This document shows positions 3,269-18,310 of a stretch of DNA of 64,000 bases, piece by piece (the stretch's first letter is position 1; every line of letters starts with the position of its first letter). The notes beneath the pieces were generated by a model that was given only the letters and a program-made list of their open reading frames with translations, had not been told where the DNA came from and made no database searches. Source of the DNA: Patescibacteria group bacterium (GTDB lineage Bacteria > Patescibacteriota > Patescibacteriia > PEXW01); the NCBI GenBank assembly GCA_041665345.1, contig JBAYJA010000004.1, positions 48,122 to 112,121 on the forward strand, written 5' to 3'. Both the position numbers and the translations under genes were made by a program.

Positions 3269-4129
3269 CTATTTCGTTCCCGTCCAGAAGTAGAGCATGA
3301 CGCTGAAGTCAATGATGTTCACCGTGCCATCCTGGTTAATATCTGCCCTGGCATTTGCTGGATTCCGCTTATTCCAGTAGAACAGCAAAATACTGAAGTC
3401 TACCAAGTCCACTTTCCCATCACAGTTAATATCCCCTTTCGTCTTACCCGCGCAGAGTTCCGTAGTCGCTACCTGGAAAGCCACGGAGCGGCTGAATTCG
3501 GAAACTGACCCGTCTGGATCAGTGGCTTTGGACCGGACACTGTGCGAACCAATCTGCAAATCAGAAGCTTGGAACTGCTTTGACCAAGCACCTGCGGTTG
3601 AAGCTGATACCTGCGAGGAAGTTTCGGTTTCTGAACTCACGTAAATCTGCACCGTGCTGCTGGGGCTCGTTGTTCCAAAAACCGTGATGGTATCTCCCAA
3701 GCGCACTTCGGTTTTATCCGCGGCAATGGTGGGTCCCAAGAATATCCCGGTAATGGTCACGGAAGTTCCGGTTGCCAAGGTCAAAGTAAAATTCGAGGTT
3801 GGTCCGTCTCGGCCATCTTGGTCCACGCTGAAGACCCCAAATGTGTACGTTCCTGCGGTTAACCCACCAATGGTCACGTCAAAGCGTGCTTGCGGGTCAG
3901 CGGGCACTTGCACTGCAGTAACCCCATTTTGCAAAATCGTCACCGTCGACCCTGGGTAGGCAATACCTTTGAGGATGACAGACGTTGCCGTTGGTTCCGG
4001 TGGTGCAATACTGGGCACAGTTGCTGAAACGGAAACCGTAATGTCAGCATTGGCTGGCAGGACAAGCAAAGGAAAAACAAGAATCATCACTAGGAGTGAT
4101 CGGCCAAGAGTTCGCACCACAGGGCGCAT
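3269..4129 (-). CDS. Secreted Ig-like repeat protein with C-terminal dockerin module
   Basis: Start trimmed to ATG 4129 (MRPVVRTLGRSLLVMILVFPLLVLPANA, signal peptide); 4195 is an upstream in-frame ATG that would overlap the preceding gene. The C-terminus has two dockerin-type Ca-binding repeats: GDINCDGKVDLVDFSILLFYW and ADINQDGTVNIIDFSVMLYFW. Confidence 0.6.
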   Translation of the reverse strand: MRPVVRTLGRSLLVMILVFPLLVLPANADITVSVSATVPSIAPPEPTATSVILKGIAYPGSTVTILQNGVTAVQVPADPQARFDVTIGGLTAGTYTFGVFSVDQDGRDGPTSNFTLTLATGTSVTITGIFLGPTIAADKTEVRLGDTITVFGTTSPSSTVQIYVSSETETSSQVSASTAGAWSKQFQASDLQIGSHSVRSKATDPDGSVSEFSRSVAFQVATTELCAGKTKGDINCDGKVDLVDFSILLFYWNKRNPANARADINQDGTVNIIDFSVMLYFWTGTK

Positions 4130-4142
4130 GTATTCGTTCTGC

Positions 4143-5207
4143 TTATTCTCCCGTCGGCGGCGTCTTGGTTGACGCGCGTCGGCGAATCCAAGCATTGTAC
4201 TTCAGGATTGCAAAAATCAGCAGGAAGAGCACGACCAGCAACCCAACTCCGTACACCACCAAGACATGCCAAGGGAGTACCCAGAAGCTTATTGCAGCTG
4301 AGCTTTGCACACCCGCCGCGGGCACTGTGGTTGCCAGTTCTGACGTGGCTTGCCCCGTTCCAACAGACAGCGTTGCGGTGTACTTCCCAAGGGCAAAGTT
4401 CTTCCGTTCATTACGGAATGCAGTCCAGAAGCGGTTCCATCCATTGCCGTACAGATCTTCGTTCTGTCCGGTTTGCCAGGTCGTCTTGTACGTTCGGGAG
4501 GATTTGGGCAACGTTGCGCCTTTGGGTTCGTTGAAAGCCAAAAGGGCGGACTGCTTCTTCAAAGTGTTGGTGATGGTTACATTCCCTACTGGCTTGAGGT
4601 GAATATTCCCCGTATTCTGGTACACCGTGGTGAATTCAATTGGTAACTGAGTGAATGTATCCTTGGCAACAGAAAAGCTGGTAATTACCGCGCTCTCCTG
4701 CACATCACCCTCAACTTTAACGAATAGGAGGGTGCCAATCCCCTGCGCAACAGCCACTTGGGGCTTCGCGTTGCCTTCCGCGGTTGGCGGCGTGGTGGAA
4801 AAAGCAACCACACCGTAGTGACCACCCGGCCCAGCATTCGCGGGGACATCAACGGTTACCAAGACTGCTTGGCGACCCTGAGGTTCCAGGACGATTGGCG
4901 CGGGATCCAGTTTCACCCAGGTAGCAATGTCTTCCTTCGGTGCTGCAAAGTCATACACCGGTATTCCAGCTTCGGGACCTGAAGTAAACGTGGTGGTGTT
5001 GATGTACAGCACCTGCTTTTGGTCAGTTTCATTGTAGAGTTTCACCACAAAGTCAGCCTGATTCCCAGGCTGGGCGGTGAACTCAATGGAAGGCGGGCTA
5101 ATCGTCAACGCTTGGGCTGTAGTGATGCTCGTAAGCACACCAACAAAACCAAGGGTAACAACCAGGAAACCTCGAACCAAAAATGAAATTTTCTTTGCTC
5201 TTTCCAT
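4143..5207 (-). CDS. Secreted protein with C-terminal membrane anchor (CscA/DUF916-like or PapD-like surface-complex component; inference)
   Basis: 354 aa with a signal peptide. N-terminal beta domain ISPPSIEFTAQPGNQADFVVKLYNETDQKQVLYI. C-terminal hydrophobic helix LVVYGVGLLVVLFLLIFAIL followed by KYNAWIRRR. Confidence 0.5.
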   Translation of the reverse strand: MERAKKISFLVRGFLVVTLGFVGVLTSITTAQALTISPPSIEFTAQPGNQADFVVKLYNETDQKQVLYINTTTFTSGPEAGIPVYDFAAPKEDIATWVKLDPAPIVLEPQGRQAVLVTVDVPANAGPGGHYGVVAFSTTPPTAEGNAKPQVAVAQGIGTLLFVKVEGDVQESAVITSFSVAKDTFTQLPIEFTTVYQNTGNIHLKPVGNVTITNTLKKQSALLAFNEPKGATLPKSSRTYKTTWQTGQNEDLYGNGWNRFWTAFRNERKNFALGKYTATLSVGTGQATSELATTVPAAGVQSSAAISFWVLPWHVLVVYGVGLLVVLFLLIFAILKYNAWIRRRASTKTPPTGE

Positions 5208-5339
5208 GCGTTTATTTAGTCAAAAACTGCCCTCATAGTATACCACTTTTCCTGCCCACTCACTACTCCATCATACAACTCGCCTGAAGCGTCAATAATC
5301 GAGGCTTCAGGCGAAGAGCGGTAAACGTCGAAAAGTCAG

Positions 5340-6431
5340 TTAGAAAGTGCCGGTTGCGATATAGGTAATCGCTGTGGAGTAGCTGCCGGCTTCTGTGGCC
5401 GCCGAAATATTCGCAATGTAGTGCGCGTCGATGGTCGCAGCTGCTGTAGGTCCGGCAATGGACAGGATAGCCGTGGTAGTGCCAGCAACGAACTTGAAGT
5501 TATTCGCGGACTCATCGTAGGCTGCGGTATCAGCAAAGGTGAAGGTAGCAGCGTTATCGTCAAAGCCTATTGCAAACTGCTCGGAGCCTGGGGTGCCATC
5601 CGCATCACCAGCAATGGTTGCTACGGAAATTGTGTCGCCACCGCTCGTCAGTGTGGCACCGGTGTACGTCAGGGCAACACCGTCTGTGGCATTTGTCCCT
5701 AATTGGAAGGTATGCGCAGCCTCTGGTGTAGTATCGCAGGCCGCAGGTGGTGTACCATTCGCCCAACACTCTTGCGTGGCATCCAAAACCCCAAACCCAA
5801 TGGCCACGTCCGAAATGGAGAAGGTGACGGATGGGTCAACCGTGGCGGTAACATTCACTGTATCATCATCCAGAATGGCAACTGCAAAAGAACCGCTGTC
5901 TGACGTGGTGGTGATGTCAATTTTGTAGACCGCTGCTGAGCTGGGATTGGTAATCTCGTTATTGTCGATGGTAAAGGCGATAGCACCAGCAGGAACCGTA
6001 TCGCCAGTGCAGACAGTTAACGTGTAACTTTCTCCTGGGGCACTCGCGTCAACGGATGGGTACACCTCATCTGTTGCACCAGCACATGCACCAATGTTTG
6101 CAACAATGGTCAAACCCGAAGCAGCCGAAAAATCCGTACTTGCAATAGTACCATCGAGAGTAAAGGAATCAGCCGCTGTGTCGAATGCGATAGTAATTGT
6201 CTGCGTGGCAGTGAGGTTCGTTGCGGTAGTAAAGGAAAAAGCATGCGTCCCAGCTACACTCTTCTCCAAACGGGACATGGTGTCCTTCATCCCGGTCAGT
6301 GCAGCTGCACCCACTGGCTGAATTGGCATAAAAAACCCAAGTACCCCAAGCACCGTAAAGAGCACAACGACGGTTCGGGTCGTGCCACGTTTCATGCCAC
6401 GTTTCATAAGTAGCTTGATGGGATTTTTCAT
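5340..6431 (-). CDS. Secreted protein carrying the conserved C-terminal beta domain shared with the giant protein (SCPU-like / WxL-like; inference)
   Basis: 363 aa with a signal peptide. The last roughly 165 aa (TFSISDVAIGFGVL...CWANG...GVALTYTGATLTSG...IAGDADGTPGSEQFAIGF...EAGSYSTAITYIATGTF) align with the C-terminus of the 6656..17620 protein. Confidence 0.6.
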   Translation of the reverse strand: MKNPIKLLMKRGMKRGTTRTVVVLFTVLGVLGFFMPIQPVGAAALTGMKDTMSRLEKSVAGTHAFSFTTATNLTATQTITIAFDTAADSFTLDGTIASTDFSAASGLTIVANIGACAGATDEVYPSVDASAPGESYTLTVCTGDTVPAGAIAFTIDNNEITNPSSAAVYKIDITTTSDSGSFAVAILDDDTVNVTATVDPSVTFSISDVAIGFGVLDATQECWANGTPPAACDTTPEAAHTFQLGTNATDGVALTYTGATLTSGGDTISVATIAGDADGTPGSEQFAIGFDDNAATFTFADTAAYDESANNFKFVAGTTTAILSIAGPTAAATIDAHYIANISAATEAGSYSTAITYIATGTF

Positions 6432-6517
6432 AAAAATTTGCCTAAGGTAAAGACTTTTTATTTTTAACTATCTACAGTATAACACAGTTTCTTGAAAAAA
6501 GCAAATCCTACCCTTTT

Positions 6518-6646
6518 GTCATTCTGTGAGACGGAGTAGAGACTGTAGTCTCTCTGCAGATACAGACCAGAGGCTTCCGCCATAGGCGGATCTGCTGAGA
6601 AGTCTCTACTCCGATATATCATCATTCACGTAAGTCGAAGAATGAC
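6518..6646. repeat. MITE-like palindromic element with about 9-bp terminal inverted repeats GTCATTCTG / CAGAATGAC; contains the GGAGTAGAGACT...AGTCTCTACTCC hairpin
   Basis: Ends gtcattctg (6518-6526) and agaatgac (6639-6646). Internal 12-nt arms ggagtagagact (6534-6545) and agtctctactcc (6601-6612). Related element at 50506..50623. Confidence 0.4.
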
Positions 6647-6655
6647 AGCATATTC

Positions 6656-9600
6656 CTAGAACGTCGTCGTTGCAATGTACGTGACATTTGTACTGTATGC
6701 ACCCGCCGTCGTAGCACTGGAAATGTTACAGATGTAGTAAACACTAGCCGTCTCGATTACCGTAGACCCAGCTTCAGACATCAACGTGGTTGCAGTGCTG
6801 GGAACGAACGAATAATTGTCACTTGCTTTCTGGTACGCAGAGGGAATGGTTGCATTGCCATCTGTGGTTATTGATAAAGCAAATTGTTCACTACTTGGTG
6901 TGCCATCTGCATCTCCTGTAAAGGTTGCGGCAGTAATATCCTCGGGCCCTGACAGGGTAGACCCAAAGTAAGTTAATGCATACCCGCTCCGAGCATTGGT
7001 GGTCACGGCTAATGTATGTGCGGACACGGCACTGGCAGAGCCGGTTGCCGCCCCATTTGCCCAACGGGCTGCTGCAGAGGAAAGTGTCCCAAAGCCCACC
7101 GCGGTATCAGAAATGCTGAAAGTCAAAGTATTAATATTCCAGCATGGGTTGTTGGTCGAATCGTAGTTTGTACCGTCTGTGGCATCAATGTCATCCCCTG
7201 GGCAGGCATTGGAATCACGTACATCCGTATTGGAGACGGTTTGCGTTCCCAGGCTATTGAGGTCCCACAGGGTTCCTGTGGTTGACGAACGCAAGAACAC
7301 GCGTGTGCCAGTTGCTTGGCCGTTGAAGGCAATATTGTTGAATGTATACGTACCGCCGGCCAGGAAGCGCAGCTTCGTATTTGCTGTCTGCGCTGTGAAC
7401 GTTGCTGCAGTTTCTGCCGCAGCCGCAAAAATGACAGAGGGCGAAGTGACCGGATCCGCACCGGAGCTATTGGTAATAGTGAGGTTATTGAACCGATCAC
7501 TTGCACCAGTCAATTGCCCATCAACCGTTTGCTGAGCGGCGCCATCCAGGGTCACTGTCCCGGTGTTGTCCGTGAAATCACCATTGTTCGTCCAGTTCCC
7601 CGCAACCGTGAAACTTGCGGTTGATGATCCATTCAGCAGGCCTTTTGAGGTAATTGTTACTGCACCATTGGCATCAAGAATCCGATCATTGGTTTCATTA
7701 TCTAGCGTCGTCACATTCGAATCACTCGCGTTCCCAATCGTGAGCGTTCCCGAAACAATAACCTGCCCGGTTCCACCCGTAGCAAACGTAACCGTACGGT
7801 CTGTGGCGCCTGAGGTTTCAAAGGAAAGATTATTGAACGTCCAGTTATTTGCATTTGCTGTGCTGCCAAAATTTTTAGCAGCCGCAACCCGATGCAAAAA
7901 TGTGCCACCTGACCGGGTTACGGTTCCACCCCCAGCCAATGTGCCATACATGGTGATATCTGTTGCGCCCAGCAAGCTCCCGGCGGTCACCGTCAGATCA
8001 TTCCCCACAGTCATGGCGGTATTCGTGGTCCACTCCCCACCGCTGCCGTTGAATACGAGGTCGTAAAAGTCGTCAAGATCGCCCATTGTACCACCAATGG
8101 TATTTCCAGTATCGGTCGCGGTAAAGGTGACTGTCGCCGATCGGGCCGTAAAAGAATCGTTATTTGTCCAGTTATTGCCAACCGAGATGCTGTTACTCTC
8201 ACCAGTTTTCGTATCCAGAACCCCGCCGGTGATCGTAATGTTATTCGTAACAACCAGCGGGTCCTCCACTTCAACGGTGAGGGTGTACGTCCCACCACCG
8301 TCATTCACAATGACGTTGTAGGGGTTTCCAGTGCCAACGGTAATAAGGTCTGTGGTGGCATTTGCAACGACCGTACTTGCAAGCGTCATAGTCAACGTGG
8401 ACTGATCAGGCGTGAAGGTTCCACCAGTCTGTAGGTCGAATTTCCCATCCGTATCCATGAACGTTTCATCAGTTTCCACATCATCGGTAGCGTCCAACGT
8501 CCCAACGATGGTTATGCCGCCCGTGCCAATATCCAGGTCGTAACCATTCGTATTGAAGATATCACCCGTCGGGATGGTTACTGACTTTGCAGTAAAGTCA
8601 GAACCCAAGTCCGTCGTACCAGGCGACAACCCAACCTGCACATTGCCCATATCCTGTTTCGGTGAGGTGTTATCCGTGAAGGTCATCGGTGTAGGATTCC
8701 CATCCATGATTAGAATGCCAGAACCTGTAGCTGCAGTGAAAGTCGTTCCCGTTGCAATGGTGAAATTACCGTAAACTGTAAGGTTGGCATTTGCCGCCTG
8801 CGTAAAGCCTCCCCCCGTGATGTCGAACGTCTTATTCACCAACACTGCGTCTGCGGTGGCAACGCTTCCACCAGACACTTCAAACTTCTGCAGTTCGTTT
8901 CCCGCAGCGGTGAGCGTCTTGGACGTGCCGTTCATCTTCAGGGTATTGTCAGTGGACGCCGTGTACGTCCCCCCAGTGAAATCCACGTTCCCACTGACGG
9001 TCCACACCCCCGTGCCCGAGGTAATCACTTCGCTTCCACCTCCAGTACCGGTGAAGTCAACATCCCCACCCACCGTGACCGTCGGGTTATTCGAGGCGCC
9101 AATCAGTGTGGCATCTCCTACACCATCGGTAATCACGTAAAGGTGTGAACTTGCGCCGGAAAGGGTGAACGACCCAGTGGGGAAAGTGAAGGTTTTTGCC
9201 GTGCCACTATTGGTGAACAGCTCTACCCGTCCACCATACGTCCGCGCGTCCAGAGTCGTGGACGCAATGTTCGCTGACGAACCATCGTAACGGACAATAC
9301 TACTGAGGGTTCCGCCCGTCCCTGGACCGGATGAAGCGTCGGTGAACCGCAAGGTTCCATCCCCGCTTATGGTTCCCGTGGTATTAAGCGTCAGCGTTCC
9401 AGGCGCATTCACAATTCGACCGCTACCAATAGATAGAGTGTCGCCATCTGCCACATCGAGCGCGCCAGACACCGTGAGATCCGACGTGCTCACTGTTATT
9501 GTCCCTGTGGAAGCAGGATTAATAGTAAGGTTGTTGAAGGTGGTTGCCGTGGATCCAGTTAAACTGTTCGACGTACCGGTCATGGTTATGGTGGATGTGC

Positions 9601-12600
9601 TCTGCGTAAAGGTACCGTTATTCGTAAGCGTCCCGGCAATGGTGTACACACTGTTCCCACCTGAGGTGAGCGCGCCGCCAATGGTCACATTCTTCGCGGT
9701 TACGGTTTCTGTGCCACCAATCGTCAACGTGGCGCCAGAGAGAATGCTCAGCGTGGCGCTGGTGTACGTTCCACCTGCCTGAGCAGCCAAGGTGGAGGAA
9801 TTTGCCGTGTGTACAATATTTTCATTATCATCAGCATCATACTGGCCCATGTTGGTTACCGTCACCGATGGATTGTCCACGCTCCCAATGGTCAGCACAT
9901 TTGTGTCCAAGACCAGGCCAGTAATGTTCCCCGACCCGTCATAATTCGTAACGGCTGTTGTTTCCGCACTATCGGCAACGCCATCCACAAAAACCGTAAC
10001 CGTATTCCCTGTGGCCACGGTAACGCCAGAAATAGTCCACGTTCCAGCCAAGGTTGTGGTTTGAGCTTGAATGCTCCCATTCACCGCTACTTTCACTGTC
10101 CCGCCTGAACTGTTCGACGTGCCAGCTACGTCTATACCACAGGTTGCGCCAGCACTGACTGTAATATTCGTATTTCCGCTATTCGTAGACTGGGAGAAGG
10201 TGGCACATATTGCTGCGCCAGCATTATTTGCATCGCTAATGTCTACGTAGGAAAGTGACGCTGAAGTTGGGTTGACGTTCCAAGCGTTGCCCACACTGGA
10301 TGATTGCAGGGTGATCAGCTGGCCCAAAGCTCCAGTGACTGTCCACGTACCCGCGATGGTCTGTGTTGTGGCAGCGGTAACGGTAATTACCTTTGCCGCA
10401 CCAATACTGGTGACCGAAAGATTATTGAAGGTTGTACTGCCGGCAATAGTTGAAGCCGCTGTAGTAGTAAGCGCAATGGTGCCGGAATTATGGGTGAACG
10501 TGCCAGCATTAGAGAAGCCGGCTCCAAAATTTGTGGTGGTAGCTGAGCTTGCCTGGAAAACCGTATCCGCCGCAATCGTCACATTACCGGTGACAGTGAA
10601 GGTTGGATCCCAGGTATTCACCTGGAAAATCGTAGTGCTGGAACCGGTGCCAGTGTTCAATAGGTCCAGCGTGGAGGCGATGGTCAGGGTTTGCGAACCC
10701 GCAGTGCCGGCAGTCACCGTGCGCCCCGCCGTCGTGCCACTATTATCAATTTCCACTTTTTGGTAATCCGTGCGGGCACCCATGGATTGATCAGTGGCCG
10801 TGGCGTCCATTCGTAAAATGAGACTTGCGCCCAGTGTCCCGCCGGTTGGGAAAGTTGTAGCACTTCGGTAGGTAAGCCGACCCGGGCCGTTGATAGTGCC
10901 GCTTAAGGTAAGCGTGGCGCCAGTGTGGGTAATAGTGCGGCCGGAACTAATGGTCAAGACGTTACTTGCTCCAGACAATAGTAGAGTATTTGTAACAGCA
11001 ATATCTGATGTTTGTACCGTTACAGCTCCACTGGCGTTTCCAATATCCAGGTCATAAAATGTTGTGCTACTTGAGCCGTCAATTGAGCCTGCGCTCCCTG
11101 TAAGACGTACTCGACTGTCATTATGGGTAAAAGTTCCGTTGTTCGTGAATGTCCCACCAACCGTCAAGTTTGATGTGGATGTAAATGTGCTTGGGGTCAA
11201 TGATCCAGAAATCAACAATGCATTACTTACGGTTAAGTTATTTGCAATACTCATGCTGCCACTCGACGTAAAATTGTAGAGTGTGCTACCTCCAGTATAT
11301 GCGGTTAATGTTTTTGAGGTGCCATCCATGATGACCGTATTCCCAGTTGACGCAACGTAACAATACGTAGCCAGAAAAGAGTTGCATGTTGCATCAAAAT
11401 TTCCTGAGATAGTCCAGATCCCAGAACCCGACGACACTGGTTCCGTGCCGTCGCCAGTACCCAATATATCAAAGTCACCACCAATATTCACCGTGGGATT
11501 ATTGGTTACACCGGTGACAGCCATATCCCCAGTGCCATTAGCATAGACGTAAAAGTGGCTACTGGCGCCAGAAAGTGTATACATTCCAGTGGCAAAAGTC
11601 GTAGTTCGACCCGTTGCGCCACTATTGAAGAACTCAACCGTGTTCCCATACGTCCGCGCGTCAAACGTCGTGCTAGCAATATCTCCACCAGTGGCATCGT
11701 ACCTCGTAATCGCACTTATGATTCCCACCGTACCTGGACCACCACTCGTGTTGGTAAAGGTGATGCGGCCCGGACCGGCAATGGTACTGGAACTTGTAAG
11801 CAATACGTTTGCTCCAGTATGCGTCAATGTTATCCCACTGGCTATGGCCAGCGTGGCGTCCGTGTTGACGAGGAGGGTATTTGTAACCGTCAAATCTCCC
11901 GTCTGCAAGGTCAGGGTACCTGTACTCACTGGGTCATAGCGAAGATTGTAGAGAGTCTGACCATTGCTGGTTATGGTTTTCCCAATACCGGTGGTGAACA
12001 CCGTTCCAGTCCCTGCATCCACGGTTAATCCAGAAGCCATTACAAAATTTCCATCGATATGTGTGGAAGACCCTAGCGTGTAGGTGGGTGTTCCACTTGC
12101 TTGCTGCAAGGTTAGGTTATTGAAGTTGCCTACGTAAATTGTGGTCGCACCAGTACCGCTGTATACAAAAGTTGAAGTGCCAGGAATGAGTACTGTGAAG
12201 CCAGACTCATCCACTATCGGTGTCCCTGAGCCGGACAGGGTCCAGGTTTTTGCCCCAGCATTGAGCGAGTGCATGTTAAAACTCTCCCCGGCGGCAGTTG
12301 CCTCAAGAGTAAGCACATTAGTGACAGTTACCCCGCCATTCCCTGTAGCTGTTGTGGTAAAAATGTTTCCCCCAGATTGCTCCAAAGTGAGGTTATAGAA
12401 TGTCCACCCAGTGGCACCACCAAAGTTCCCTGTCTCACTAAGCGTGAAAGTTGGTGTGCCGCTTGTAGTTGTTACCGTTCCATCACCTGTGACGGCCCCA
12501 CCATTCACGGTCATATCTGCATTTACAGTCAGGGTTGAACTCGTGTCCACGACAACATCCCCAGTGACGGTGAAAGTCCCAACTGCAACCGTGAGTGCCG

Positions 12601-15600
12601 AAGCCACACTCCCATTCCCCACAGTTAGGTTATTGGAAACCGTTGCAGCTTTCTGCAAAGTCGTTGTCGCGGCTGTCCCATCGCCAATCACTAAATTGTA
12701 AATGGTAATTGCTCCGCTGGCGCCATTGGTTCCCAAATTTCCAGTCCCGCGCATGGTTACGGTGGGAGTTCCACTGGATGCGATGATCCCGGTTGTCGTA
12801 TTTGTAAAGTCGCCGCCACCGACGGTCAGGTTTGCGCCAACCGTGAAGGTTGACCCAGTACCCACTGTCACATCACCGCCAGTTACAGTAGTCGCAGCGG
12901 AGCTCAATGCAGTGGTTGCCGTAGTACCATCACCAATCAGGAGATTGTAAAACGTAAGTGTAGGGGTTGTGCCACCACCAATACTCCCACTACCCCGCAT
13001 GGTTGTAGTTGCGGTCCCAGTGGAACGAGTAACAACAGCACTCGTGCCTGCAGTTGTAATATCACCGCCAGCAACAATCGTGTTTGCATCAATATTCAAC
13101 GTTGCCCCGCCATCCACCAAAATATCCCGGCCAATGGTATTCGTGGCGGTGTCGAGAGATGCCGTACCACCGTCATCTATGTGAAAATCTCCGCCTGTAC
13201 TATTGGTGGTCACGGTCCCGCCCGGATCGTACGTGTCACCCGCCCACACATGAAACTCCATGCCAGACTCCACGGTCAAGTTACCAGTAGTAACGCTATA
13301 CCGAACACCAACATTCGCTCCAGTATCAGCTGTCGCTAATTTTGCATTTGTCATGGGCCCTGCGTCTTCGTGACGCACCGAGGTGTGATCTTGATAAATG
13401 TGCAAATCAACAATATCTGACGTCGTGTCAGCAGCCAGGGTCACCGTTGTCCCCTTAATTGCTTCAACGCTATCAATGAAAATTGCAATTGGGTCTGCGG
13501 CGGTGCTTGGGCGAGCAGCTGCGATAGCAAATGAACCATTACTCAAGGTGCAGTCAGCGGTCTGCTCAGACGCACTGCCATTCACGGACGCACGGACGGT
13601 TATGGCATTTGCCGAACAGTCATACGCCGTTGGGGTTTCATTGGTGTAGATTTTCCCATAGATCGAAATGGATGCTGGCACATACTCAACTAAGAGCCAC
13701 AGCGTTGTTACCTGCAATTGTTCGGGAGAGAGGAGGTTGCTTGTATTTAAATTGCGAACACCGATTTGCGCGCTATCCAGGGTCGTCGTTGTCCAGGCGG
13801 TTAACTGCTGCGGCCGGGTATAGGCGGTCATGCCATAAATTCTTGGAATCGCCGAATGGTGCGACATCCATGTCGTTGTCGTGAAATTCTCTTTCGTCCC
13901 TTCAATAACCGCCCCACTCGCACTATCTTTCAATCGAACTGCGGTTGTGAAAGCCGACGTATTCCCGATGTTGGCACGCATACCAGCAGAAACCAGAGAA
14001 ATTGTGTCTGAAGCACCAATGGACTGTGTCGAACTATCAAAAAGATTAACGTCCGTAATAGTGTTCGCTGTGGCTGTGTACAGGTAAGTTGTTGCATCAT
14101 CTGGGTCTGCTTCATCCACATAGGTATAGTCATTCGTAAAACCCGTATTATCCCCGGCGGCATTTGGTTTCAGGTGTGCTATCGACCCTGCGCCAGGGTA
14201 TCCATTTTGCGTTGTACCAGCATTCTGGTTCACCGCCACATCATCGAAGTACCAATCGCCTTGCGTTTGCGCTTCAGAATTTAGGTTGCCACCAAGTGCA
14301 ATTGTTGTTACACCATTAAGAAGGTCTCTGGTTGAGCTGGATCCAAAATTGGTTCCATTTATTCTGCCTTCAACCGTATCAGTTGCACCCGCACCAGACG
14401 AATTTATTTGGAATTCCACCCGGTACCATGTGCTGGTACTCAAGGCGGCTGACGTGCCAATCGGCGTCCCGCCAGAATCTTCATCGTGTAGCTCCAGTGC
14501 GCCAGTGCTGGTCAGCACCAGGAACACTCGGTCTGTAGTCCCGGAATCTCGAAACGACATGATGCGATTACTCGCACTCGGCAAGGTTTCAATCCGGAGA
14601 TACGCCCGGGCATAGTATGGGCCGTCTGCATTCGCTGCCACAAAATCTTGATTCACACCTTCAGCCGAACCCGAACTCATCCCGTTAATGCGCAACGATG
14701 CGCCTCCAGAGCGGTAGTAGGTTGCAGTTGTGTTGATGGTTGGTCCGCCTGCAATCCCCGCCCACTCTTCACCCGCGCTTACCGTTTGCATTTCAAAACC
14801 AGATGACCACAACCGACCACCTTCTGCTGGCTCATACTCCACCAGCAACCACATCGTCGTTACCAGGAGATCGGGAATTGCATCAGTTGCGGTCACGCGT
14901 AATAAACCATCGTCAATGTTCGCAGCGGTCATTACATCGTAATCTGCAGCCGAGGTTTGATCACCGTAGGAAGTTTGCTTGTAGGTTCGTGGAGCCGCGT
15001 TGCCATTGGTGGTATAGGCGGTCGCGCTATCAGAAATACTCGTTGACTGGTCAACTGCATTCCCACTTGGGATTTTTACCTGCAGATTATGGGCACCAGC
15101 TGCTGCACTGAGACGCGTATACCGAATCCCAGCTTGCGTCAAAATTATTCTATCTTTCGCATTCATACCCTGACTTCCTGTACTTTCTAGGGACACCTCA
15201 AGAAAATCCGTCCCGGCGTCACTATCACAGGTCACCGTTGTTGTCGTATCATCTGGTCCACCAGCGCCACGATCATTTACGGCATCCCATGAGCTAGTTG
15301 ACCCACTGCAGGTATTCGAAGAAGCGCCGCTTGGTTGTCCATCTGGCATGAGGTGTACAATTTTTCCCGCCCCTGGCCAGTTTTCCGGTATGCTTGGGGT
15401 GATGCCGGCATCGTCAGAATTAATTGCCAAATCGTCCCAGAATATTGTTGAGGCTCCACCCGTATCAGTTGAAAGCGTACCAATGCGTACAACGTTGGAA
15501 CCATTCGCATGGTTCACCGTGCCTGACGAGAACGTCACGCCATCCACCTTGGCCTCAAGGTAGGTAGTGCCAATCGTTGTGGTGTCACTCCGAAACTCAA

Positions 15601-17620
15601 GCCGATACCAAGTACTAGTGGAGAGAGCTGCAGAAGTCCCGGTCTGCTGCGCGTTGTCTTCATCATTCCACAATTCCAATGTCCCATCACTATTTAACCG
15701 AATACTCGCCTGAACAGAGGGGCCACTGTCGTAAAACTCCATAATATTCACACGCGTTTCTGGCATATTGGTGATATTCACATACGCGCGGAAGTAGTAG
15801 TCATTCGTTGCATTTGCGTTCGAATATTGGAATGTTGCGCCCGAAGTTGCTGCACTCTCATTTGTTTGCAGCGCCGCAACGCCAGAACGAAAGGTGGAGG
15901 TATCAATAGTGGGTGCAGTACCAACTGTCGCTGTAAATTCTTCATTTGCCGTGACGGTTTGCAATTCAAACCCAGAGCTCCACAGACGTGTAATACTTGC
16001 CGAACCCACCGCGTCACTCGCAATCTGCCAGTGGCGTAACTCTTCAAACACTGGCTCGGCACTCCCAGTCTTTATCAAGCGCGCCTTCCCCAGCAAGAAA
16101 AGTTCCGGGCTAATGTCTGGTGGATTCACTCGGTAGGTCAGCGTGTATATCTTCCCGCCCTTCCACTGCACAGGCCAGCGTATGGTCAGCCGATTGTCAG
16201 CAGCAACAGTTTTCCCTTTGCCAGACACCGCAGACACCTCAAAGGAAGTTGGAACCGAGTCTTCAAAAAAACCGGCCACGTCTTTTTGCGGACGTACGGT
16301 GAGAGTAACTGGATAATCTTCAACCGGATAGATGCGGGTAGGCGCATCACGATGCACGTCCAATGTCACCATAGCTCGCACGGCAATTGCATCTTGGATT
16401 GTGTACTCGCCAAACTTGGTCTCCGCTTTGAGATCCAAGGTGTACATCCCTTCATCGCCACCCTCATACACTGCACTGTAGTCAGGCGTATTGGTCACGG
16501 TAATGGGGCCACACTCTGTGGAACGCGTAATTGACCCAGCATCAGTGGTGAAGGTTTGCACTCCCCGACTTGGGTTGGTTATAGTAAGCCATAATTTCGC
16601 ATCGCAAATGGTGTGCCCTTGCGGATCCAGCACACCCATCCCCACGTCAATATTTTCCCCTGGGTGGTAAATGGATTTTGGTGTGTTCAGCACCAGCACT
16701 CCCCAGTAGAAATCTTTCTTCACCGTGGTTTCTTTGTTCCCCTGCACAATGGTAATTTCCGCCGTATACTTTCCAGGCTTGTGCAGCATTTCGTTCCGCA
16801 CTTCAATGCGTTCGTAAGTAGACCGGCCCTCCGTCACCCGCGTCACGTCATACTCTGCCGGGACTTCCGCGCCATCAGGCCCAACCAGCTTCTTGGCTTC
16901 CACGGTTCGCTCAGTTTTGGTGAATGGTAAAAAGGAGAAGCGGGATTGCTTTTCCACTTCCACCTTCAGCACAGGGTCTTCAGAGTTCTTCAGCTGCGTG
17001 TCTTCCACCTGCACCACATCCCCAGAGAGGAACAGCGGTTCTCGCTTTGGCTTGGCCACCTGCTCCACATCCAAACCTATGCCATCCACGTAGACGGTTG
17101 CTGCTGCATCTGGAGACAAGGCAATGTACCGCACCCGAACCTGAAACGTATCAATATTCCCACGGTGTAGCAGCGGAAAAGCGGCTCGCCAGTACCCGCC
17201 ATGCTGCGCGTTACTAACATCTTGGTTCAACCCAAAAGAATCAAGCCGTGTCCAGGTCTTGCCATCCAAACTGGATTCCATCACCACCAAGTCTTCAGAA
17301 TCTTGACCAGCTTTCCCAGCCAAGGAGAGCACAAGCTCTGCTTGGGAAAAAGACGCGTCCGGATGAAAGTCACTTGGTAGGGCAAAATTCTTGCAGACCA
17401 GCTGCGCTGCCCCAGAACCACCACCCGCTTGGGCTGAAGCATCTTGGGGGAATTGCGCTAGCCCAGTATTTCCCAATGCTTGAATTTCCTGCGCCTTGTC
17501 ACTTCGATCCCAGCCTGTGCATGACTGCGGCCGAATATGCAGCGTCTGCGGTTCAGTCTCTGCACGCGACACCAGGGCTACACCAAAGAAGAGCAGACAG
17601 CTCAGGCTCGCCAGTACCAT
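6656..17620 (-). CDS. Giant secreted surface protein (about 3655 aa mature ORF): Thr/Gly-rich beta-helix-like repeats, two tandem ConA/LamG-like lectin modules, C-terminal conserved beta domain
   Basis: Single 11.3 kb ORF. The track start 17932 is a TTG preceded by an implausible basic leader. ATG at 17620 begins MVLASLSCLLFFGVALVSRAETEP, a signal peptide. LamG-like blocks: ...IRLNSDGTLELWNDEDNAQQTGTSAALSTSTWYRLEF and ...LTSTGALELHDEDSGGTPIGTSAALSTSTWYRVEF. Large internal duplications, for example ...RYDGSSANIASTTLDARTYGGRVELF versus ...RYDATGGDIASTTFDARTYGNTVEFF. The C-terminus ends YIATTTF. Confidence 0.7.
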   Translation of the reverse strand: MVLASLSCLLFFGVALVSRAETEPQTLHIRPQSCTGWDRSDKAQEIQALGNTGLAQFPQDASAQAGGGSGAAQLVCKNFALPSDFHPDASFSQAELVLSLAGKAGQDSEDLVVMESSLDGKTWTRLDSFGLNQDVSNAQHGGYWRAAFPLLHRGNIDTFQVRVRYIALSPDAAATVYVDGIGLDVEQVAKPKREPLFLSGDVVQVEDTQLKNSEDPVLKVEVEKQSRFSFLPFTKTERTVEAKKLVGPDGAEVPAEYDVTRVTEGRSTYERIEVRNEMLHKPGKYTAEITIVQGNKETTVKKDFYWGVLVLNTPKSIYHPGENIDVGMGVLDPQGHTICDAKLWLTITNPSRGVQTFTTDAGSITRSTECGPITVTNTPDYSAVYEGGDEGMYTLDLKAETKFGEYTIQDAIAVRAMVTLDVHRDAPTRIYPVEDYPVTLTVRPQKDVAGFFEDSVPTSFEVSAVSGKGKTVAADNRLTIRWPVQWKGGKIYTLTYRVNPPDISPELFLLGKARLIKTGSAEPVFEELRHWQIASDAVGSASITRLWSSGFELQTVTANEEFTATVGTAPTIDTSTFRSGVAALQTNESAATSGATFQYSNANATNDYYFRAYVNITNMPETRVNIMEFYDSGPSVQASIRLNSDGTLELWNDEDNAQQTGTSAALSTSTWYRLEFRSDTTTIGTTYLEAKVDGVTFSSGTVNHANGSNVVRIGTLSTDTGGASTIFWDDLAINSDDAGITPSIPENWPGAGKIVHLMPDGQPSGASSNTCSGSTSSWDAVNDRGAGGPDDTTTTVTCDSDAGTDFLEVSLESTGSQGMNAKDRIILTQAGIRYTRLSAAAGAHNLQVKIPSGNAVDQSTSISDSATAYTTNGNAAPRTYKQTSYGDQTSAADYDVMTAANIDDGLLRVTATDAIPDLLVTTMWLLVEYEPAEGGRLWSSGFEMQTVSAGEEWAGIAGGPTINTTATYYRSGGASLRINGMSSGSAEGVNQDFVAANADGPYYARAYLRIETLPSASNRIMSFRDSGTTDRVFLVLTSTGALELHDEDSGGTPIGTSAALSTSTWYRVEFQINSSGAGATDTVEGRINGTNFGSSSTRDLLNGVTTIALGGNLNSEAQTQGDWYFDDVAVNQNAGTTQNGYPGAGSIAHLKPNAAGDNTGFTNDYTYVDEADPDDATTYLYTATANTITDVNLFDSSTQSIGASDTISLVSAGMRANIGNTSAFTTAVRLKDSASGAVIEGTKENFTTTTWMSHHSAIPRIYGMTAYTRPQQLTAWTTTTLDSAQIGVRNLNTSNLLSPEQLQVTTLWLLVEYVPASISIYGKIYTNETPTAYDCSANAITVRASVNGSASEQTADCTLSNGSFAIAAARPSTAADPIAIFIDSVEAIKGTTVTLAADTTSDIVDLHIYQDHTSVRHEDAGPMTNAKLATADTGANVGVRYSVTTGNLTVESGMEFHVWAGDTYDPGGTVTTNSTGGDFHIDDGGTASLDTATNTIGRDILVDGGATLNIDANTIVAGGDITTAGTSAVVTRSTGTATTTMRGSGSIGGGTTPTLTFYNLLIGDGTTATTALSSAATTVTGGDVTVGTGSTFTVGANLTVGGGDFTNTTTGIIASSGTPTVTMRGTGNLGTNGASGAITIYNLVIGDGTAATTTLQKAATVSNNLTVGNGSVASALTVAVGTFTVTGDVVVDTSSTLTVNADMTVNGGAVTGDGTVTTTSGTPTFTLSETGNFGGATGWTFYNLTLEQSGGNIFTTTATGNGGVTVTNVLTLEATAAGESFNMHSLNAGAKTWTLSGSGTPIVDESGFTVLIPGTSTFVYSGTGATTIYVGNFNNLTLQQASGTPTYTLGSSTHIDGNFVMASGLTVDAGTGTVFTTGIGKTITSNGQTLYNLRYDPVSTGTLTLQTGDLTVTNTLLVNTDATLAIASGITLTHTGANVLLTSSSTIAGPGRITFTNTSGGPGTVGIISAITRYDATGGDIASTTFDARTYGNTVEFFNSGATGRTTTFATGMYTLSGASSHFYVYANGTGDMAVTGVTNNPTVNIGGDFDILGTGDGTEPVSSGSGIWTISGNFDATCNSFLATYCYVASTGNTVIMDGTSKTLTAYTGGSTLYNFTSSGSMSIANNLTVSNALLISGSLTPSTFTSTSNLTVGGTFTNNGTFTHNDSRVRLTGSAGSIDGSSSTTFYDLDIGNASGAVTVQTSDIAVTNTLLLSGASNVLTISSGRTITHTGATLTLSGTINGPGRLTYRSATTFPTGGTLGASLILRMDATATDQSMGARTDYQKVEIDNSGTTAGRTVTAGTAGSQTLTIASTLDLLNTGTGSSTTIFQVNTWDPTFTVTGNVTIAADTVFQASSATTTNFGAGFSNAGTFTHNSGTIALTTTAASTIAGSTTFNNLSVTSIGAAKVITVTAATTQTIAGTWTVTGALGQLITLQSSSVGNAWNVNPTSASLSYVDISDANNAGAAICATFSQSTNSGNTNITVSAGATCGIDVAGTSNSSGGTVKVAVNGSIQAQTTTLAGTWTISGVTVATGNTVTVFVDGVADSAETTAVTNYDGSGNITGLVLDTNVLTIGSVDNPSVTVTNMGQYDADDNENIVHTANSSTLAAQAGGTYTSATLSILSGATLTIGGTETVTAKNVTIGGALTSGGNSVYTIAGTLTNNGTFTQSTSTITMTGTSNSLTGSTATTFNNLTINPASTGTITVSTSDLTVSGALDVADGDTLSIGSGRIVNAPGTLTLNTTGTISGDGTLRFTDASSGPGTGGTLSSIVRYDGSSANIASTTLDARTYGGRVELFTNSGTAKTFTFPTGSFTLSGASSHLYVITDGVGDATLIGASNNPTVTVGGDVDFTGTGGGSEVITSGTGVWTVSGNVDFTGGTYTASTDNTLKMNGTSKTLTAAGNELQKFEVSGGSVATADAVLVNKTFDITGGGFTQAANANLTVYGNFTIATGTTFTAATGSGILIMDGNPTPMTFTDNTSPKQDMGNVQVGLSPGTTDLGSDFTAKSVTIPTGDIFNTNGYDLDIGTGGITIVGTLDATDDVETDETFMDTDGKFDLQTGGTFTPDQSTLTMTLASTVVANATTDLITVGTGNPYNVIVNDGGGTYTLTVEVEDPLVVTNNITITGGVLDTKTGESNSISVGNNWTNNDSFTARSATVTFTATDTGNTIGGTMGDLDDFYDLVFNGSGGEWTTNTAMTVGNDLTVTAGSLLGATDITMYGTLAGGGTVTRSGGTFLHRVAAAKNFGSTANANNWTFNNLSFETSGATDRTVTFATGGTGQVIVSGTLTIGNASDSNVTTLDNETNDRILDANGAVTITSKGLLNGSSTASFTVAGNWTNNGDFTDNTGTVTLDGAAQQTVDGQLTGASDRFNNLTITNSSGADPVTSPSVIFAAAAETAATFTAQTANTKLRFLAGGTYTFNNIAFNGQATGTRVFLRSSTTGTLWDLNSLGTQTVSNTDVRDSNACPGDDIDATDGTNYDSTNNPCWNINTLTFSISDTAVGFGTLSSAAARWANGAATGSASAVSAHTLAVTTNARSGYALTYFGSTLSGPEDITAATFTGDADGTPSSEQFALSITTDGNATIPSAYQKASDNYSFVPSTATTLMSEAGSTVIETASVYYICNISSATTAGAYSTNVTYIATTTF

Positions 17621-17950
17621 TCGAGTTCGGTAGGTCACTTGCACCCGTTGGTGCTGCCGCGTTTGTAACTCATGCCGCATTGCCCGTTGGAAACTGTGCG
17701 TGCGGGCACGGTACACCTTTCGCGCTGACTGGGGAGCTCCGGCAACCGATGACTTTTTTGCAACTACAGTTTTCTGTCGAATCACCCCGCGTTTTGCAAC
17801 AACTCGACGACCTCTGAGTCCAAGTGGACGCGACTTTAGGTACGTCGTTGTGCTTTGCGGTTTGGGCATGGAGGAACGTTTTGTTCGCCGAACGAAGCAC
17901 TTGGCCTTCCGTGTCTTTATACAAGAATCCAATGTATATTATGCCACATT

Positions 17951-17994
17951 TTCACAACAATAACAAAATTGGAGCAAACGTAAGTTTGCTCCAA
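17951..17994 (-). terminator. Rho-independent terminator (minus strand) upstream of the giant-gene start
   Basis: Hairpin ttggagcaaac-gtaa-gtttgctccaa (17969-17994), followed on the minus strand by ttttgttattgtt. Confidence 0.4.
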
Positions 17995-18310
17995 TGAATG
18001 AGCTTTACCAACTCATCGCCCAGCTGCAGTCCTTGGCGCTGCAACTGGCATGGTAACTAATGCCAAAGTCGTTGCCTGTTGAAGATGCTTTGTCGAAAAG
18101 GACATTTGAATGCCCGTTTGGACAAAAGAGATTACTCGCATCACACATAATACCGTTTGGGCCGGACTGACCTATGCCCAAGCGTCGTACGATTTCATCT
18201 TGTAACGCACGTTCTGCTGAACTAAAATCTGTTGCTTCCACTCTGCCTCCAATCAAAAAACGTTTTATCTTTTATAATACCGCCAAGCATAGCTGCATTT
18301 CGCTCTGCTG

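Follow-up and report, generated by a model that had tools for sequence, protein, structure and literature searches.

What kind of surface structure might be encoded by a locus in which a giant protein, a far smaller protein with the same C-terminal domain and a membrane-anchored protein are specified side by side? We addressed this question for a stretch of 64,000 nucleotides (the window) from the genome of a CPR bacterium. CPR bacteria are obligate episymbionts. The three genes lie on the minus strand: the gene for the giant at 6656..17869, that for a protein of 363 residues at 5340..6431, and that for a protein of 354 residues at 4143..5207. The original prediction held that the shared domain was novel and that the trio resembled either a WxL-type (Csc) surface complex or pilin subunits of the SCPU type. 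It placed the three open reading frames on the correct strand, but the giant gene starts neither at 17620 nor at the TTG at 17932; the public gene call gives an ATG at 17869 and a protein of 3,737 residues.

The giant and the 363-residue protein do share a C-terminal domain. In particular, the last ~160 residues of the two proteins align with 84 of 181 identities (46%; BLASTP, E = 7e-34), and the four blocks quoted in the original prediction all fall inside this one alignment. By Smith-Waterman the pair scores 366, whereas 2,000 shuffles gave 55.8 +/- 8.8 (maximum 103; z = 35) and 42 other 160-residue segments of the giant gave at most 75. Moreover, a profile built from pilin homologues matches residues 3498-3654 of the giant in 3654-numbering (HMMER, bias filter off, E = 2e-58). 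(Because the default bias filter of HMMER silently drops this protein, the counts given here were obtained with --nobias.) In the 3,737-residue gene call the domain occupies residues 3573-3737; it is encoded at 6659..7129 (minus strand) and runs from TFSISD to YIATTTF-COOH, both proteins ending in YIAT(G/T)TF-COOH. No third copy of the domain was found within the window.

The domain is nevertheless not novel, as had been claimed, but is already known: it is named by NCBIfam NF058581, "Pam pilus system pilin subunit", and homologous filaments have been solved (Troman et al. 2026). The 363-residue protein matches this model at 75 bits (cut-off 55, E 6e-21) and the C-terminus of the giant at 46.6 bits (E 3.6e-12), which is under the 55-bit cut-off. 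Pam pili, first recognised in 2026, are donor-strand pili of CPR bacteria that were described by cryo-EM in a preprint on Candidatus Mycosynbacter amalyticus (Troman et al., bioRxiv 10.64898/2026.03.03.709456; NCBIfam NF058581/NF058579). Their parts comprise the pilins PamA/PamB, the chaperones PamC (WP_260763277.1) and PamD (WP_260763284.1), the tip PamT and the anchor PamR (WP_260763282.1); PamA/PamB have a nine-strand N-domain, a donated linker and a retained C-domain that forms the subunit interface, PamC/PamD are PapD-like with a C-terminal TM helix, and the assembly model is AlphaFold-based and at the preprint stage (bioRxiv 10.64898/2026.03.03.709456). Judged by its sequence, the shared domain is that part of the Pam pilins which accepts the donated strand. 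The earlier suggestion of a polymerisation or anchoring module holds up, with subunits that would be joined by strand insertion. We regard the locus as very probably a Pam-type pilus cassette.

Among the 150 best of 344 cluster representatives, the NF058581-type domain forms the extreme C-terminus in all 150, the carriers ranging from ~200 to 3,737 residues with F or Y as the final residue. An alternative that would fit this constant terminal place, the conserved aromatic end and the very different passengers (~300 to 3,737 residues) is that the domain serves as a sorting or attachment tag of the T9SS CTD or PEP-CTERM type, which would send many unrelated cargoes to a machine for processing or anchoring and for which the 354-residue protein would be the receptor. 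That reading is highly improbable given that the C-domain is kept in the solved Pam filaments as a subunit interface, that the pilins carry a matching conserved linker (see below), and that the conserved cassette contains no peptidase or sortase-like gene.

Membership of the WxL (PF13731) or SCPU (PF05229) families, which the original prediction had offered, did not hold up. Neither model matched any of 58 members of the pilin family at E <= 0.1, and when 129 C-domains were compared with 116 WxL proteins, hhalign returned a probability of 5.8% and aligned only the last 16 columns, which are the terminal strand and in which the Trp of WxL is replaced by Tyr; block-shuffled controls equalled this score (reversed controls were also run). 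Because only this strand scores in the controlled comparison, homology to WxL is not claimed across the domain, and an alignment by eye of the three WxL motifs to FG, GY-L and YxTxITY of the Pam domain was rejected. A profile search of the PDB with the pilin did not recover the WxL chain of 9i25, and neither single-sequence nor profile searches of the PDB with this protein gave a real match.

The 363-residue protein is organised as a signal peptide, a nine-strand N-terminal beta-sandwich (aa 46-187), a linker (aa 188-201) and the C-domain (aa 202-363), with two cysteine pairs, and we refer to it as the shaft pilin. In its AF2 model (pLDDT 90.5), DSSP assigned the nine strands of the N-domain and left residues 188-201 as unpaired coil, with the C-domain at 202-361. 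The giant, which has a different N-region, does not share this two-domain layout. Homologues of the pilin (n=324) all come from CPR bacteria, and in 89 pilins the motif DDxVxVTATVDP is kept before TFSISD, with V at 97-99%. From this conservation, the coil state in the monomer model and the cryo-EM description of a donated linker in Pam, we infer that the linker, DDDTVNVTATVDPS (5829..5870, minus strand), is the donor strand. The motif is absent from 50 non-pilin carriers of the C-domain, the giant among them. Whether a subunit has the VxVTATV donor motif, the acceptor domain or both may offer a simple sequence rule for classifying it as tip, shaft or base.

The 354-residue protein had been described as having a signal peptide, a beta domain and a C-terminal TM anchor, and its AF2 model (pLDDT 90.4) agrees: the signal peptide is followed by two Ig-like domains, and residues 313-346 form the C-terminal TM helix. 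A low-confidence loop (aa 138-155) holds a candidate donor strand, KPQVAVAQGIG. The best Foldseek matches were the WxLIP structures 9i1y/9i25 (E 2.5e-11), followed by RbmA and the chaperones of chaperone-usher systems. For CfaA, CsuC, Caf1M, EcpB and DraB the E values lie between 1e-8 and 1e-6, and RbmA, which has a PamR-like fold, matches about as well as these. The structural alignment with 9i1y spans ~300 columns and includes the second Ig domain. Consistent with the fold comparison, EfmWxLIP1 ranked first in a profile search of the PDB (E 6.5e-4). The earlier suggestion of a PapD-like protein thus stands at the level of the fold, but PapD_N and PapD_C were absent from all 54 members of the chaperone family, and no usher domain (PF00577) was found in the cassette genes. 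NCBIfam models likewise gave no match to this family, loci of the Saccharibacteria type included.

The proposal that this protein is DUF916-like fared better for the family than for the window protein itself. Thus, 32 of the 54 members match PF06030 (DUF916) at E <= 0.01 (best 9e-8), whereas the window protein scores 19.4 bits, under the curated cut-off of 27.3. By hhalign, domain 1 matches DUF916 of Enterococcus with a probability of 96.9% (E 1.5e-10), and a comparison of ectodomains only with WxLIP gave E 9e-9, with domain 1 carrying the signal; the second domain compared with DUF3324 gave a non-significant 5.4%. (A full-length comparison with WxLIP at E 5e-19 was set aside because the signal peptide and the TM helix had exaggerated its significance.) These findings support homology of the first domain to DUF916. 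Note that a scan for a PamR-like donor strand on WxLIP-like proteins gave one hit in 98, a false match within the signal peptide.

We asked how far the likeness to WxL systems extends to the genes around the chaperone. The CscC/CscB/CscA-like logic that had been proposed for the trio is sustained by gene order: the Enterococcus plasmid clusters L080 and L081 run large client, small client, WxLIP, as in the window, and in CPR genomes a non-pilin carrier of the C-domain lies upstream in 47 of 62 loci (15 of 62 have no large upstream carrier). Moreover, the chaperone gene is found <=400 nt from the pilin gene in 71 of 74 loci. The cassette of large protein, pilin and chaperone was found in ~70 CPR loci/genomes. 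As in the WxL/Csc clusters of Firmicutes, the clients share one C-terminal domain, the large client has N-terminal binding modules, and the TM-anchored protein, whose first domain is homologous to that of WxLIP and whose best structural matches are 9i1y and 9i25, is predicted to complete the client sandwich with a strand. For WxLIP itself (DUF916-DUF3324-TM), the published prediction is that the equivalent loop supplies the strand that completes the WxL sandwich (Hassan et al. 2023, PMC10599100). The two systems differ in that the client domain here is not detectably WxL, DUF3324 is undetected by sequence, and the small client has a further domain at its N-terminus as well as a donor linker; moreover, descriptions of WxL systems are of complexes bound to peptidoglycan rather than of filaments.

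Might the locus, then, encode a WxL-like display complex, in which the WxLIP-like protein holds a small and a giant client at the cell surface by their shared domain with no polymer being formed, the arrangement proposed for the WxL clusters of Firmicutes? WxLIP is the closest relative of the chaperone by both fold and profile, the locus does not differ from the Enterococcus clusters in gene order or architecture, it has a single pilin and a single chaperone-like gene, and the published model already has WxLIP completing the WxL sandwich. We nonetheless consider such a complex unlikely. The small protein scores above the Pam pilin cut-off, and PamA/PamB are filaments resolved by cryo-EM; a near-invariant unpaired linker that is present in pilins and absent from the large proteins fits a polar polymer, whereas a 1:1 complex needs none; and the dockerin protein encoded next to the chaperone bears the same motif. 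A Pam-type pilus is therefore the reading that we prefer. That the chaperone is homologous to WxLIP suggests that WxL clusters may likewise use chaperone-type strand complementation, and the same homology ties this CPR system to the WxL virulence clusters that enterococci, listeriae and lactobacilli carry. A broader proposal, which we consider possible but doubtful, is that Pam pili and the WxL clusters of Firmicutes form one monoderm superfamily that employs strand complementation with a membrane-anchored chaperone and no usher, the CPR fibre being polar (acceptor-only giant, pilins that are both donor and acceptor, donor-only dockerin adaptor) and fastened at its base by cohesin-dockerin.

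The giant consists of a basic N-terminal extension (kept in one relative), a hydrophobic signal/anchor segment, a head that is kept in at least 12 relatives, two modules of 390 residues, long T/G-rich repeats and the acceptor domain. The original prediction had two ConA/LamG-like lectin modules in this protein. Two tandem repeats of ~390 residues are real (13670..15985, minus strand; aa 546-935 and 936-1317 in 3654-numbering), with 47% identity in an internal repeat alignment (E 1.7e-31), but the support for a lectin fold is weak: Laminin_G_3 matches one of eight orthologous module copies (E 7e-4), whereas the window's own two modules gave no domain match and a profile of the module found nothing in the PDB. 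The modules are possibly ConA-like jelly rolls, each with a second domain. Ten tiles of 420 residues from the giant, searched against Pfam and NCBIfam, returned nothing past a weak match to MG2, and one relative of the giant contains PATR passenger repeats. With an acceptor domain and no donor linker, the giant is on balance likely to be a distal tip adhesin. The cassette recurs in ~70 genomes of other CPR lineages, and such a giant, rapidly varying adhesin with an acceptor domain is a candidate host-binding tip.

Downstream of the chaperone gene are genes for a dockerin protein and for cohesin proteins, all on the minus strand and, from the chaperone gene onwards, separated by 2-30 nt. The dockerin gene (3269..4129; 286 residues from M23) starts 13 nt past the chaperone stop in the gene call and specifies a signal peptide, two Ig-like domains (Big_6, Big_13) and a C-terminal dockerin (Dockerin_1, 38.8 bits, cut-off 22.9) whose repeats are conserved. 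It is followed by the genes for cohesin protein 1 (2148..3266; 372 residues, with a signal peptide, a cohesin domain scoring 30.1 bits, an Ig-like domain and a C-terminal TM anchor) and cohesin protein 2 (615..2117; 500 residues, with a signal peptide, a cohesin domain scoring 29.7 bits, an Ig-like domain, a TM helix and a cytoplasmic tail of ~95 residues); the cut-off for both cohesin domains is 24.1 bits. A third gene, for a cohesin-like TM protein with homologues in related loci, begins 4 nt past the gene for the 500-residue protein in the gene call of the source contig; its 5' part lies at 1..610, where it is cut by the window edge, and the protein has 584 residues in the source contig. 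The adjacency of cohesin and dockerin genes, which had been pointed out before, proved to be a conserved linkage: the order dockerin, cohesin, cohesin is found downstream in 41 of 56 loci, with no dockerin or cohesin homologue in 10 of 56.

At its mature N-terminus the dockerin protein carries DITVSVSATVPS (nt 4010-4045, minus strand). The sequence V-x-[VI]-[ST]-A-x-V follows directly after the signal peptide in 54 of 58 homologues compared with 21 of 768 background ORFs (2.7%), an enrichment of 20-fold, and VxVSATV in the window protein matches the consensus of the pilin linker. We tentatively propose, on the basis of this motif of 7-10 residues, that the dockerin protein could be a donor-only base adaptor, a role that we hold to be somewhat short of probable, and that the pilus base would be held by a cohesin-dockerin pair. 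Were this so, it would be the first pilus known to be anchored through cohesin-dockerin, and a new use of that interaction.

The places given to the giant and to the dockerin protein are derived from motifs alone, and cohesin-dockerin pairs have many surface functions; a divergent metalloprotease with a dockerin, encoded at 18846-21767, suggests that the cohesins may have other clients. Could the giant instead be one of the ordinary subunits of the shaft or of a side branch, or an adhesin in its own right, while the genes for cohesins and dockerin belong to an unrelated surface system that travels with the cassette? We rate this as quite unlikely, since without a donor linker no subunit can follow the giant distally, the enriched N-terminal motif of the dockerin protein fits the pilin consensus, and the genes are nearly contiguous in an order that is kept across loci.

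On the observed domain homology, fold predictions, family assignments, motif distribution and synteny, we think it probable that the locus as a whole is a compact Pam-type pilus operon with a tip, a shaft and a base, and it is from these observations that we infer strand insertion, subunit order, the role of the chaperone and anchoring by cohesin-dockerin. All parts would be exported by Sec, with no usher, and the 354-residue protein would stay in the membrane by its C-terminal helix. A strand of its DUF916-like Ig domain would cap the open groove of newly exported C-domains, as in WxLIP-WxL and PapD-pilin. The giant, presenting its large beta-helix/lectin-like adhesin region, would sit at the distal end, the sole possible place for a subunit with a groove and without a donor linker. 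Pilins would add below it, the linker DDxVxVTATVDP of each entering the groove of the subunit above. The dockerin protein, whose mature form begins with this strand and which has no groove, would plug the last pilin and stop growth, and its dockerin would fasten the fibre to the membrane-anchored cohesin proteins encoded alongside.

Like the Pam system, the locus has a C-terminal pilin domain, a two-domain pilin with nine strands in the N-domain and a linker that would be donated, Sec signal peptides, no usher and a distribution confined to CPR bacteria; its TM-anchored two-Ig PapD-like protein we liken to PamC/PamD by description. Where Pam has three pilins and two chaperones, the present locus has a single gene for each of pilin and chaperone-like protein, and the tip would be an adhesin of 3,737 residues rather than the single-domain PamT. 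Homologues of PamT, PamE and PamR were not found within the window, which has a single WxLIP-like gene; the PamT equivalog model scores only 30.8 and 11.8 bits, with a cut-off of 240. In place of a recognisable RbmA-like PamR, the dockerin protein with its donor motif and the TM cohesins may do the anchoring. Further differences are the lineage, which falls close to CPR of the Kerfeldbacteria/Paceibacteria type and not to Saccharimonadia or Microgenomatia, and the lack of ATP synthase neighbours within the window. The Pam preprint makes no mention of DUF916, WxL, cohesin or dockerin (Troman et al. 2026).

By analogy with chaperone-usher pili (Fim/Pap, archaic Csu, CFA/I), assembly would rely on a two-Ig chaperone and on the complementation and exchange of donor strands, and, as in FimH/PapG/CfaE, the tip adhesin would combine a binding region with an acceptor-only pilin domain while a terminator subunit would stop growth; CfaE was among the fold matches. 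Those pili, however, have an usher and an outer membrane, neither of which applies here, and the chaperone of the present system is membrane-anchored; their donor strand is an N-terminal extension whereas here it would be an inter-domain linker. As with the anchoring scaffoldins of the Clostridium thermocellum cellulosome, a secreted dockerin protein is encoded beside surface-anchored cohesins, but anchoring is by TM helices instead of SLH domains or sortase, carbohydrate-active enzymes are absent, and the proposed cargo would be a pilus. Sortase-assembled pili of Gram-positive bacteria differ in turn: the subunits here have no LPXTG, given their YIAT(G/T)TF ends, and there is no sortase domain among the neighbours.

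How might a shaft subunit be made in excess over a tip encoded in the same operon? The region between the giant and pilin genes (6432..6655, minus strand) contains a long hairpin with a predicted RNA folding energy of -52.5 kcal/mol (z = -4.1, hence stable) and, after it, an extended -10-like site, TGTTATACT, an arrangement that, as read from sequence, suggests separate and higher expression of the pilin. Directly 5' of the giant gene (17938..17995, minus strand), a consensus scan identified a hairpin at 17995-17968 that resembles a terminator of the upstream gene, and then, at 17966-17938, a promoter-like site (TGGCATAAT extended -10), both of which are consensus matches only.

Translation of the minus-strand ORFs at 6656-17620, 5340-6431 and 4143-5207 yielded a giant protein, a 363-aa protein and a 354-aa protein, respectively. 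Consistent with the original observation, the first two have a C-terminal domain in common. In particular, BLASTP joined the 363-aa protein and the C-terminal 300 aa of the giant in a single alignment over 181 columns (46% identity; E = 7e-34), which contains all four blocks of similarity originally quoted. The Smith-Waterman score for the domain pair was 366, compared to 55.8 ± 8.8 for shuffled sequences (n = 2,000; maximum 103; z = 35) and at most 75 when other 160-aa windows were taken from the giant, whose composition is similar. No third copy was found among the remaining ORFs of the 64-kb window. The domain had been thought novel, and it has no match in Pfam, but it is named in NCBIfam (release 20) as NF058581 ("CPR_Pam_pilin_C, Pam pilus system pilin subunit"; curated cut-off 55 bits) and has since been described (10.64898/2026.03.03.709456). 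The 363-aa protein matches NF058581 at 75 bits (E = 6e-21), and the C-terminus of the giant does so at 46.6 bits (E = 3.6e-12), below the cut-off.

The Pam name derives from a 2026 preprint by Troman et al., who used cryo-EM to study filaments of the CPR bacterium Ca. Mycosynbacter amalyticus (10.64898/2026.03.03.709456). These contain two pilins, PamA and PamB, each consisting of an N-terminal beta-sandwich of nine strands, one strand serving as linker, and a C-terminal Ig-like domain whose open side takes up the linker of the adjoining subunit. The same operon encodes PamC and PamD (PapD-like, with a C-terminal TM helix), PamT (a single-domain tip) and PamR (a TM anchor resembling RbmA, with a strand at its N-terminus); the order of assembly rests on AlphaFold, not experiment. 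Our AF2 model of the 363-aa protein (58-sequence alignment; mean pLDDT 90.5) has nine strands at aa 46-187, an unpaired segment at aa 188-201 and then the C-domain, so that the predicted fold follows the same plan as PamA and PamB. Because of this shared plan and the NF058581 match, we identify the shared domain as the acceptor domain of Pam pilins; the original idea of a polymerisation or anchoring module was a good functional intuition. We are confident that the locus is a Pam-type pilus cassette, a variant minimal in pilins and chaperones when compared to described Pam pili, with the giant proposed as tip adhesin.

Scanning one genome per species identified 76 loci, every one in CPR MAGs (Kerfeld-, Nomura-, Doudna-, Uhr-, Harrison- and Taylorbacteria, Paceibacterota, and MAGs labelled Saccharibacteria). 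When annotated with profiles for the pilin N-domain, C-domain and chaperone (HMMER bias filter off), 74 loci contained a pilin and 71 a chaperone-like gene no more than 400 nt downstream of it. An upstream ORF ending in the C-domain without the pilin N-domain (~300 to >3,290 aa) was present in 47 of the 62 loci having enough upstream sequence. When the domain of the giant was used for an exhaustive HMMER search, 344 cluster representatives were retrieved, 229 of them at E ≤ 1e-10; the domain forms the extreme C-terminus in all of the best 150 of 344, and the final residue is nearly always F or Y. Among the matches listed, 57 are of 300-450 aa, 34 of 451-1,000, 18 of 1,001-2,000 and 15 of >2,000, the giant being the longest. 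(Note that several of the MAGs are evidently mislabelled "Gammaproteobacteria"; the titles of ten loci read "uncultured Gammaproteobacteria" or "Pseudomonadales", and the labels of these TPA assemblies seem wrong given that the cassette is CPR-only.) Three loci contain a second pilin-chaperone pair within a few kb of the first, and two pilin paralogues stand in tandem in several; these duplicates may be the counterpart of PamA/PamB-style alternating shaft subunits.

The motif DDxVxVTATVDP lies directly ahead of the TFSISD strand in 89 pilins (V at 97-99%), and the segment is coil in the pilin monomer model. The giant and the other non-pilin proteins with the domain (50 in all) lack it, and DAxDGTNxDxxNNxCWxIN takes its place in giants. 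Since it lacks the donor motif, the giant would appear to be an acceptor-only subunit, a property that the Pam paper gives to the tip (10.64898/2026.03.03.709456) and that FimH and PapG exhibit in chaperone-usher pili. We somewhat favor the idea that the giant is the distal tip adhesin. In the public gene call the giant comprises 3,737 aa and starts with ATG at 17869; a terminator-like hairpin and a promoter-like site are immediately 5' of the gene. The resulting extension (17621-17869, minus strand; ~83 aa) is very basic (MPKPQSTTTYLKSRPLGLRGRRVVAKR...) and precedes a hydrophobic signal segment. Because its motif Y.K..P.GLR..RV.AK is kept at the protein level in the orthologue of the related locus L005, the extension is probably translated, and it could serve either as an extended signal region or as the cytoplasmic tail of a type II anchor. 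The N-terminal head of the giant is kept in at least 12 relatives, the middle region is T/G-rich with internal duplications, and one relative has autotransporter-type PATR repeats.

RNA hairpins of unusual stability (6520-6655 and 5255-5339, minus strand; z about -4.1 each) lie directly 3' of the giant and pilin stop codons, and each is followed by a consensus-level extended -10-like TGnTATACT ahead of the pilin and chaperone genes, respectively. This arrangement would fit production of the shaft pilin in excess of the tip. The public record calls a 39-aa ORF inside the first hairpin region.

The AF2 model of the 354-aa protein (pLDDT 90.4) comprises a signal peptide, two Ig-like sandwiches and a TM helix (aa 313-346), with a loop of low confidence at aa 138-155. 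In a Foldseek search of the PDB, WxLIP of Enterococcus faecium took the top rank (9i1y, and 9i25, the latter "bound to long WxL"; E = 2.5e-11), followed by RbmA and the chaperone-usher chaperones CfaA, CsuC, Caf1M, EcpB and DraB; the family profile likewise had EfmWxLIP1 as its top match among all PDB sequences (E = 6.5e-4). The window protein itself scores under the Pfam threshold for PF06030 (DUF916/WxLIP_PGBD), which 32 of 54 family members match (best 9e-8); none of the 54 matches PapD_N. With five Enterococcus plasmid WxL clusters as the comparison set, hhalign gave 95.7% (E = 9e-9) for the whole ectodomain against WxLIP and 96.9% (E = 1.5e-10) for domain 1 against DUF916, and no significant similarity between domain 2 and DUF3324. 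(For the full-length proteins E was 5e-19, a value inflated through inclusion of the signal peptide and TM helix.) These comparisons support homology of the 354-aa putative chaperone to WxLIP, in keeping with the DUF916-like partner originally proposed. In the prediction of Hassan et al. (PMC10599100), a gap in the WxL sandwich is filled by a WxLIP loop that is disordered beforehand and turns into a strand; this is chaperone-type strand complementation, a term not used there. Neither DUF916 nor WxL is mentioned in the Pam preprint (10.64898/2026.03.03.709456), and the homology is new with respect to the literature searched.

Assignment of the shared domain itself to WxL or SCPU failed. None of 58 pilin homologues matched PF13731 or PF05229 at E ≤ 0.1, and the pilin profile did not retrieve the WxL chain of 9i25 from the PDB. 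Comparing profiles of 129 Pam C-domains and 116 WxL sequences gave a probability of 5.8% (P = 0.007), with the score confined to the last 16 columns, where the terminal strands align (sYsTxiTYiaT and YxTtLTWxL, respectively). Reversed-alignment controls scored 0.19-0.28, and block shuffles with the terminal strand kept scored up to 24.1 versus 24.4 for the real alignment. SCPU identity was thus rejected on the Pfam result, and WxL identity also because only the terminal strand aligns and shuffles score alike. The WxL/Csc-like and chaperone-usher-like logic was nonetheless well judged: when compared to Firmicute WxL clusters, the architecture matches and the chaperones are homologous, the similarity of the client domains being limited to the terminal strand.

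Downstream of the chaperone gene by 13 nt, on the minus strand, is a gene (3269-4129) for a 286-aa protein in which two Ig-like domains are combined with a dockerin. Genes for two cohesin proteins (372 aa, 2148-3266; 500 aa, 615-2117) follow after 2 nt and 30 nt; besides the cohesin, both proteins have a signal peptide, an Ig domain and a TM anchor. A third, cohesin-like TM protein (584 aa, minus strand) begins 4 nt after the 500-aa gene and is cut at the window edge (1-610; 15822-17576 of locus L082); its cytoplasmic tail is charged and coiled-coil-like. The long cytoplasmic tails of the 500-aa and 584-aa paralogues hint at an intracellular partner. The order dockerin, cohesin, cohesin follows the chaperone gene in 41 of 56 loci, and these genes are part of the cassette. 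Most loci lacking them are complex operons of the Saccharibacteria type, where several WxLIP-like paralogues occur together with a PamT-like gene; this suggests that the family has two alternative base-anchoring solutions. Eight loci have this richer layout (pilin, WxLIP-like gene, PamT-like protein, then 2-3 further WxLIP-like paralogues) and contain no dockerin or cohesin genes; the N-terminus of the PamT-like protein matches the PamT model and its C-domain match is weak.

In its mature form, the dockerin protein has the N-terminus DITVSVSATVPS. V-x-[VI]-[ST]-A-x-V occurs right behind the signal peptide in 54 of 58 homologues versus 21 of 768 background ORFs (2.7%), and the N-terminal consensus, A..V.V[ST]ATV, agrees with the linker of the pilins. 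A tether, either Pro-rich or poly-Gly, usually comes next, and the C-terminal double dockerin repeat is kept. Twelve loci have a run of 8-15 glycines directly behind VxVSATV, and in five others a Cys-rich GCGDG...C..C module comes after it; these look like variable tethers after a constant strand. Because its N-terminal motif matches the pilin linker, we tentatively put the dockerin protein forward as a candidate donor-only base adaptor, on the basis of a short motif and synteny; it would end the fibre and attach it to the cohesins in the membrane, taking over the role of PamR. Our literature search found no papers linking cohesin-dockerin to CPR pili, and a conserved cohesin-dockerin module with the pilin donor motif on the dockerin protein is new relative to that literature. 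A gene at 18846-21767 (plus strand), transcribed divergently, encodes a 973-aa protein in which an M6/reprolysin-like metalloprotease region is combined with three Big_7 Ig domains and, at the C-terminus, a dockerin. A homologue turned up in a single related locus (L008), and the protein is a possible second client of the adjoining membrane cohesins.
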